A stretch of 64,000 bases of DNA, taken from NCBI RefSeq assembly GCF_055900595.2, contig NZ_CM148325.1. The stretch is one strand, 5' to 3'. This document shows, in pieces, positions 18,300 through 18,355 of the stretch (the stretch's first letter is position 1; every line of letters begins with the position of its first letter). The position numbers and the translations under genes are program-made. The notes under the pieces are model-generated. The model worked only from the letters and a program-made list of their open reading frames with translations, was not told the DNA's origin and did no database searches.

Positions 18300-18355
18300 C
18301 CCGAGGTAATCTGAAAAAGGTGCAAAAGATTGCACCTTTTTCAGATTACCTCGGG
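18300..18355. terminator. 25-bp perfect inverted repeat with 5-nt loop; probable bidirectional terminator between convergent yjcF and yjcE
   Basis: cccgaggtaatctgaaaaaggtgca / tgcacctttttcagattacctcggg; inner GC-rich stem flanked by A5 and T5 tracts. Confidence 0.6.

Follow-up and report, generated by a model that had tools for sequence, protein, structure and literature searches.

The long perfect palindrome between yjcF and yjcE in the window (the whole 64,000-nt stretch of Escherichia coli DNA that we analysed, in whose coordinates positions are given unless stated otherwise) is probably an old two-way terminator hairpin of these two genes, whose arms have been perfected by template switching during replication. 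The initial annotation had picked out the terminator core, and that part holds; what it missed is where the perfection of the arms comes from, since this appears to be a derived, lineage-specific trait that arose by copying from one arm to the other. The extra length and perfection of the arms are best accounted for by a mutational mechanism that is already known, working on an element of a known kind, with no new element or mechanism involved.

The perfect inverted repeat covers 58 bp, and its two arms of 27 nt each (18299-18325 and 18330-18356) are 100% complementary, the left arm being the exact reverse complement of the right arm in the window's lineage. It is slightly bigger than first described, when arms of 25 nt and a loop of 5 nt were given. 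Its parts are as follows.

18299 to 18325: left arm, 27 nt, GCCCGAGGTAATCTGAAAAAGGTGCAA, distal to yjcE and at the edge of the yjcF islet.
18326 to 18329: spacer or loop AAGA, 4 nt, the same in all alleles seen.
18330 to 18356: right arm, 27 nt, proximal to yjcE; in E. albertii and Escherichia sp. MOD1-EC7003, homologous sequence follows the yjcE stop codon.
18314 to 18341: no strand assigned; putative core bidirectional intrinsic-terminator motif, called from sequence, energies and conservation across Escherichia.

The runner-up among the perfect inverted repeats of the 64-kb window (spacer of at most 10 nt) has arms of only 13 nt, and a further copy of the arm with three or fewer mismatches was found neither in the window nor in 100 shuffles. 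RNA folding gave predicted energies of -50.5 kcal/mol on the + strand (z -10.3) and -52.6 kcal/mol on the - strand (z -12.3), and the palindrome folded as single-stranded DNA gave -34.5 kcal/mol (z -10.8). The folding-energy check proposed in the initial annotation therefore returned z-scores at or below -10 in every case, for RNA on both strands and for single-stranded DNA, and its remark that the stem is far longer than that of a typical terminator was borne out as well (27-bp arms against about 5-14 bp). A search of Rfam 15 with the palindrome returned no family at the gathering threshold; the sub-threshold matches to eukaryotic miRNA precursors (at most 41 bits, against thresholds of 67-245), together with weak sRNA matches, are generic matches to a long hairpin. 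In the MG1655 record NC_000913.3, the palindrome bears no annotation at all, neither as a REP nor as any other repeat feature. A search for the same palindrome across genomes, which had also been suggested, showed that it is single-copy, with one copy in the window and a median of one place and a maximum of two per genome, and not the many dispersed copies per genome of a REP/BIME or MITE-like family. It was not found among phage records, and its matches in the plasmid collection were all to chromosome-sized records.

As the initial annotation stated, the palindrome is flanked by convergent genes, yjcF on the + strand and yjcE on the - strand. It starts 89 nt past the stop codon of yjcF, whose transcript direction runs into it, and ends 20 nt from the stop codon of yjcE, positions that suit a terminator of either gene. 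The surrounding features are listed below.

15089 to 16738: + strand; actP, neighbouring gene.
16764 to 18307 (approximate): no strand assigned; yjcF islet, delimited by local alignment to the empty sites (L015-L017) and by composition.
16917 to 18209: + strand; yjcF, also espX5, an AT-rich (27-37% GC) pentapeptide-repeat protein gene.
18377 to 20026: - strand; yjcE, Na+/H+ antiporter gene.
20177 to 21526: - strand; ghxP, neighbouring gene.

The 301 bases round the palindrome are 100% identical to E. coli strain 2013C-4282, with 37 differences from it over 4.1 kb of the wider locus. Comparison of several genomes (L004, L014-L017) revealed that the actP-yjcE interval, 16739-18376 in the window, is a variable locus with three states in Escherichia. 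About 4,100 of the 5,426 complete E. coli genomes have the AT-rich yjcF together with the palindrome. B2-type strains (e.g. U14A) and E. whittamii carry lrgAB and a LysR regulator without the palindrome, an arrangement that bears a different GC-rich hairpin. The third state, found in E. albertii (L017), Escherichia sp. MOD1-EC7003 (L016) and SCPM-O-B-8794 (L015), has neither yjcF nor lrgAB; yjcE and actP are directly convergent there, with a homologous hairpin between them next to the yjcE stop codon. The right arm, the A5-GGTGC...GCACC-T4/5 core and the inner portion of the distal arm align across these lineages. On the hairpin side, the window is homologous to the empty sites as far as about 18308, within the left arm; on the actP side, homology restarts at about 16763. 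This boundary, together with the presence of the hairpin in Escherichia that have no yjcF, indicates that an older hairpin received the islet, in its distal arm or just past it. Since the islet entered a hairpin that was already there, the palindrome cannot be a scar of the islet's insertion. The two islet junctions hold a candidate target-site duplication, in sequences too diverged for a call. A search of genome contigs seeded with the window's YjcF recovered no confirmed relative, and a YjcE seed found relatives.

Several other features of this locus vary. Directly after the actP stop codon, the window has a second hairpin at 16750-16769, CCCCGGTC-GCTT-GATCGGGG, which aligns to the outer distal arm region (GGTCAGGTGACC) of the empty-site hairpin of MOD1-EC7003 and SCPM-O-B-8794; judging from this alignment, it may be a fragment of the ancestral hairpin that was split off by the islet and now acts as the actP terminator. 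Among the E. coli examined, a 14-bp insertion, CTCACGGACTTCTG, at 18256-18269 is confined to the window's clade (the window, 2013C-4282, R32_14_1F and N96). The yjcF allele of the window is 6-10% diverged from those of other E. coli, against only about 2-3% for the adjoining yjcE. The annotation of some strains makes yjcF a pseudogene: HS (L002, 1267-2559) has an internal stop in it and MB06233 (L096, 652-1945) a frameshift. IS1 was found at the palindrome twice: in LF3-1 (L003, 1714-2411) it takes the place of yjcF to within about 70 nt of the palindrome's left end, and in L2_E1649 (L009, 1288-1985) its end abuts the loop and the left arm is gone.

The core of the palindrome consists of A5 (18314-18318), GGTGCAA (18319-18325), the loop, TTGCACC (18330-18336) and T5 (18337-18341), and in the window's allele it looks like an intrinsic terminator in both directions. 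Its inner hairpin is modest, a 7-bp stem with four G-C pairs and a ΔG of -8.7 or -9.6 kcal/mol. The stem is followed by U5 on both strands, with five U in the first eight positions of the tail, and the A5/T5 tracts flank it symmetrically. A generic promoter/terminator scan called no terminator at the palindrome, probably owing to its stem-extension rule, which runs past the T-run. The conservation of the core in E. albertii and two other Escherichia lineages, as well as a K-12 transcript 3' end at the hairpin, supports the initial proposal that the inner GC stem with its A5 and T5 flanks is a bidirectional terminator.

The transcript end comes from a TRS analysis of RNAtag-seq data, which places the primary 3' terminus of K-12 yjcE at 4,281,714 (PMC10687069 Supplementary Data 4). 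This position is equivalent to 18292 in the window and lies 7 nt past the base of the full 58-nt hairpin (tail UAACAUU), off the inner U3 tract. In the same K-12 data, read starts are about 8 times as dense in the yjcE 3' UTR as in the CDS, a transcription start site is given at 4,281,630, on the base that immediately follows the stop codon of yjcE, and no 3' end is reported for yjcF (PMC10687069). The long hairpin therefore defines a stable yjcE 3' end in K-12, either by termination or by blocking 3' exonucleases. As the end falls beyond the full hairpin, away from the inner U-tract, exonuclease trimming and not termination could have produced it. The interval 4,281,630-4,281,714 (approximately 18376 to 18292 in the window, - strand) spans about 85 nt that are nearly all hairpin, and could correspond to a free-standing or processed RNA.

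Adams et al. 2021, calling Rho regions with 800-nt windows, placed one at 4,281,854 (+), antisense to yjcF, with a Rho score of 6.7, and another at 4,281,402 (-), antisense to yjcE, with a score of 5.4 (PMC7815308 supplementary file 2). These are equivalent to about 18140 and 18604 in the window, a few hundred nucleotides past the hairpin in either direction. The tables of that study list Rho regions only, with no Term-seq 3' end at the hairpin (PMC7815308), and the TERMITe supplements contain no entry for yjcE or yjcF. Rho regions on both sides indicate that termination at the hairpin is incomplete, at least in the common imperfect allele, and imply either read-through or local antisense initiation beyond it. 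The Rho data show that Rho limits transcription beyond the hairpin, and they are silent on events at the hairpin itself. All of these transcript-end data are from K-12, which has the imperfect allele, and for the perfect allele we infer the efficiency of termination.

To resolve the alleles of the element, we used allele-specific 86-nt queries on the 5,426 complete E. coli genomes, about 4,110 of which carry it. The alleles form a nested series that runs in both directions from the common state.

S0: four mismatches in 27 positions; about 4,050 genomes.
S+1: left-arm TT>AA only; 25 genomes exact.
S+2, the state of the window: left arm fully complementary to the right arm; 17 genomes exact, plus N96 and R32_14_1F.
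S-1: right-arm TT>AA; 4 genomes exact.
S-2: right arm fully complementary to the left arm; 8 genomes exact over the full length (9 records at 99% identity or more).
18306 to 18315: no strand assigned; left-arm sites that set the window's allele apart, namely G18306, T18310 and AA18314-15, against C, C and TT in S0.

The left arm of S0 is GCCCGAGcTAAcCTGttAAAGGTGCAA, and its right arm is the same as that of the window. N96 is S+2 with a SNP in the flank, and R32_14_1F is S+2 with a secondary SNP in the stem. The pairing partners of 18306, 18310 and 18314-15 are 18349, 18345 and 18341-40, respectively. Every allele change lies at a mismatch position and yields the exact complement of the other arm. 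In the identity classes listed, the partial alleles S+1 and S-1 have the loop-proximal dinucleotide corrected, never the outer sites alone, and all alleles seen have the loop in the same orientation. At none of the variable pairs do the two perfect alleles agree, S+2 having G-C, U-A and AA/UU where S-2 has C-G, C-G and UU/AA. The S-2 sequence had been written down as a prediction before the search and was then matched at 100% identity in 8 genomes. The series also changes the U-tracts (given as yjcF sense/yjcE sense), which are U5/U3 in S0, U5/U5 in the window and U3/U3 in S-1 and S-2. The Rho-stopped transcription described above is in keeping with S0, where the U3 tract encountered by yjcE transcripts is poor.

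Comparisons between nearly identical backgrounds carry most of the weight. EC43 (S+2) differs from HB-Coli0 (S0) at the four arm sites and one flank SNP across 17311-18926 (1.6 kb); SC407 (S-1) differs from HS (S0) solely at 18340-41 across 18216-18725; and MB06233 (S-1) and 2017-19-1CC (S+1) are identical over 17893-19595 except for two opposite dinucleotide corrections. On such backgrounds independent point mutations are implausible: by our own arithmetic, the chance that four substitutions in a 27-nt arm would hit precisely its four mismatches, each with the right base, is about 1/(17,550 x 81). That S-1 and S-2 are derived follows from the outgroups, all of which have kept A5 in the arm proximal to yjcE. 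A covariation test on the 7 distinct alleles was weak, the observed score being reached in 24 of 500 shuffles with too few sequences, and for this reason the case is built on the background comparisons instead. Apart from the series, a G>A change at 18344 in the right arm (L007, L008) forms a fifth mismatch and is found in most of the approximately 700 genomes in the 90-95% identity class. Both this change and 18320 G>A keep a G-U pair in the yjcE-sense RNA, a weak and non-significant hint that the hairpin of this RNA matters.

The allele pattern is that expected of quasipalindrome template switching: relatives carry an imperfect version, the changes are confined to mismatches and complement the other arm, either arm can be the template, and the tract extends outward from the inner stem. 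That template switching turns quasipalindromes 'perfect or more perfect' is established in E. coli (PMC7202029), and comparative data have led to the proposal that it keeps intergenic inverted repeats of proteobacteria perfect (PMC5941160). In the mechanism that we propose for this locus, the hairpin would ancestrally have been the common terminator of yjcE and actP and would now be that of yjcE and yjcF. The core (A-tract, 7-bp stem, 4-nt loop and U-tract) would terminate in both directions, and the longer hairpin would also define and protect the 3' end of the yjcE mRNA. The outer 17 bp of each arm would constitute a quasipalindrome that is repeatedly rewritten in the E. coli population: the nascent strand would fold back on the perfect inner stem, copy the opposite arm outward from the loop and then rejoin its own template. 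In the window's lineage, the whole left arm would have been replaced by a complement of its partner, generating the perfect 27-bp inverted repeat and, as a side effect, lengthening the yjcE-sense tract from U3 to U5, by which the core terminator of the window would have become sequence-symmetric. We infer replicative template switching rather than another kind of arm conversion; RecA-type conversion is unlikely with arms so short.

All eight 8-kb blocks of the window show negative GC skew, and the K-12 map position is 4.28 Mb, clockwise of oriC; taken together, these suggest that the replication fork moves from right to left in window coordinates. Under an intramolecular model, S+ alleles would then be leading-strand products and S- alleles lagging-strand products. 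An expectation that only the left arm would be corrected, as a leading-strand product, was overturned by the S-1 and S-2 alleles. Strand bias in template switching has been described in the reporter literature (PMC7202029). Here, S+ and S- each have about three inferred origins, reckoned without a genome phylogeny, and these counts are too small for any conclusion about bias.

The window's own clade comprises about 19 genomes, all of them S+2, with flanks that differ by about 1% among members and with a divergent yjcF allele. As all members are already perfect, the direction of change in this clade was not observed directly; the rest of the species and the outgroups suggest that it ran from the imperfect to the perfect state, and not all four sites can be polarised with outgroup arms that have diverged so far. 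MOD1-EC7003 (L016, approximately 4669-4729) has a long quasipalindrome of its own, with arms of about 24-26 nt and a ΔG of -37 kcal/mol. Its outer arms read CCTGAC/GTCAGG where those of E. coli read CCCGAG/CTCGGG, paired changes that keep the complementarity. The hairpin of SCPM-O-B-8794 is 15-16 bp long, and E. albertii has little beyond the core. From these comparisons, the arms could be evolving in concert across the genus, through copying, selection for pairing, or both.

Selection for pairing is central to a different account, in which the perfect palindrome is ancestral and was kept in the window's clade by selection on an RNA or DNA hairpin, S0 being its decayed derivative. With a yjcF allele that is 6-10% diverged in this clade, four differences per 27-nt arm would be unremarkable; the outgroups read 'TA' at the AA/TT site, intermediate between both E. 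coli states; and MOD1-EC7003 not only has the same A at the site equivalent to 18310 but also shows long outer-arm pairing with compensatory differences, which could mean that pairing is selected. However, S0 occurs on all the other, diverse backgrounds, and the outgroups match it at the site equivalent to 18306. Moreover, perfect and semi-perfect alleles arise from S0 in both directions on near-identical backgrounds, which means that a mechanism producing perfection is active at the locus, and plain decay would not yield the reverse-perfect S-2. We therefore consider an ancestral perfect palindrome unlikely, while granting it some weight. The chance is much smaller that corrected alleles were spread between strains by homologous recombination over short tracts instead of being made by intramolecular copying. 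The flanks over 18280-18391 are identical in window-like and HS-like backgrounds, so that a tract of at most 112 bp from a window-like donor could have made EC43, and S-1 occurs on two backgrounds. Recombination moves alleles, but it cannot create the S- states: for the first S-1 or S-2 there was no donor, because nothing else contains the new right-arm bases, except that they complement the left arm of their own molecule. S+1 would, in addition, require a tract shorter than about 10 bp.

The long symmetric arms might also be the site of a dimeric protein or a cruciform element, in either case separate from termination; a protein-binding site and a cruciform had both been suggested at first. 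A perfect 27-bp inverted repeat with a 4-nt spacer and a DNA ΔG of -34.5 kcal/mol could in principle be extruded as a cruciform, yet about 98% of the genomes carry the asymmetric version. The four outer-arm positions that are asymmetric in these genomes are resolved in two ways in the perfect alleles, which differ at all four variable pairs and hence share no fixed recognition sequence, and the only reported transcription-factor peak nearby, for SrsR by gSELEX at 4,280,360, is inside yjcE and off the palindrome. Convergent genes are predicted by the twin-domain model to generate positive supercoiling, which disfavours cruciform extrusion, and the palindrome lies between just such genes. No observation calls for a cruciform. 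A role of this kind is accordingly very improbable. Even less credit can be given to the idea that a mobile element carried in the AT-rich islet and left the palindrome as its scar or terminal repeat, as the initial annotation had in part supposed. The palindrome does sit exactly at the islet's edge, with empty-site homology ending at about 18308 within the left arm, and IS1 has inserted beside or into it in two genomes. But species that never had the islet also possess the right arm, the core hairpin and the inner left arm, which makes the hairpin older than the islet; the palindrome is single-copy and absent from phages and true plasmids; and the other end of the islet has no partner repeat. 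Finally, quasipalindromes generate chimeric reads, and EC43 is a singleton on its own background, as might be seen if the rare alleles were sequencing or assembly artefacts at the hairpin. The probability of this is close to nil, since S+2, S+1, S-1 and S-2 were each found in several independently sequenced isolates from various hosts and countries, and the window agrees exactly with 16 other genomes.

An old terminator hairpin with arms perfected by template switching resembles several known systems. Ju, Li and Liu (Nat Microbiol, 2019) reportedly described bidirectional intrinsic terminators between convergent genes throughout the E. coli genome. Like these, the palindrome is one hairpin between convergent stop codons, with an A-tract and a T-tract as its two flanks, so that a stem followed by a U-tract is read on both strands; its position is conserved, and a K-12 mRNA 3' end is found at it. 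In contrast to them, its arms far exceed the typical stem length, the 3' end lies past the full hairpin, the common allele has a good U-tract in one direction only, and Rho regions follow on both strands. The mutational side has precedents in the model of Ripley 1982, the thyA and rpsL hotspots of E. coli and the lacZ QP5/QP6 reporters of the Lovett laboratory (PMC7202029), with comparative evidence from Lavi et al. 2018 (PMC5941160). As in those systems, multi-base changes are restricted to arm mismatches and turn an imperfect repeat into a more perfect one, either arm serves as donor, and the perfect inner stem would prime the switch. Unlike the lacZ reporters, which score selected reversion, the palindrome is a natural intergenic polymorphism with a five-state series in wild isolates, and whereas the reporters show strand bias, both arms have been corrected about equally often here, in few events. 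REP/BIME elements are likewise extragenic palindromic hairpins in 3' UTRs between convergent genes, and by analogy the palindrome probably protects the upstream mRNA from 3' exonucleases; it differs from them in being single-copy, unrelated in sequence and much longer in its arms. Similar to the long palindromes that form cruciforms or are substrates of SbcCD, it has perfectly complementary arms and a very short spacer, but it is only 58 bp long and has been stably inherited in a clade with about 1% flank divergence. Apart from the IS1 insertions, no deletion derivatives of the palindrome were seen among the E. coli alleles.

It is conceivable, albeit rather doubtful, that arm copying amounts to a recurrent heritable switch of terminator polarity, between U5/U3, U5/U5 and U3/U3, accompanied by double-stranded RNA as an RNase III substrate in read-through transcripts and by a free-standing RNA of about 85 nt. 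If so, the switch would alter how far the convergent transcription of yjcE and of the effector-like yjcF/espX5 invades the opposite gene. Read-through of the perfect alleles would give a 27-bp dsRNA helix, a potential substrate of RNase III, and the start site at 4,281,630 together with the 3' end at 4,281,714 would make the hairpin a free-standing RNA. Independently of such a switch, the locus preserves an unusually complete natural record, as the imperfect parent, both half-corrected forms and both fully corrected forms coexist in sequenced E. coli. It is a test case for methods that detect template switches in bacterial population data, and could show whether the strand bias of the reporters holds on the chromosome. 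It also gives a warning that 'compensatory' changes in a hairpin can be mutational in origin and need not reflect selection on RNA structure, and it suggests that template-switch events can alter the U-tracts of terminators.
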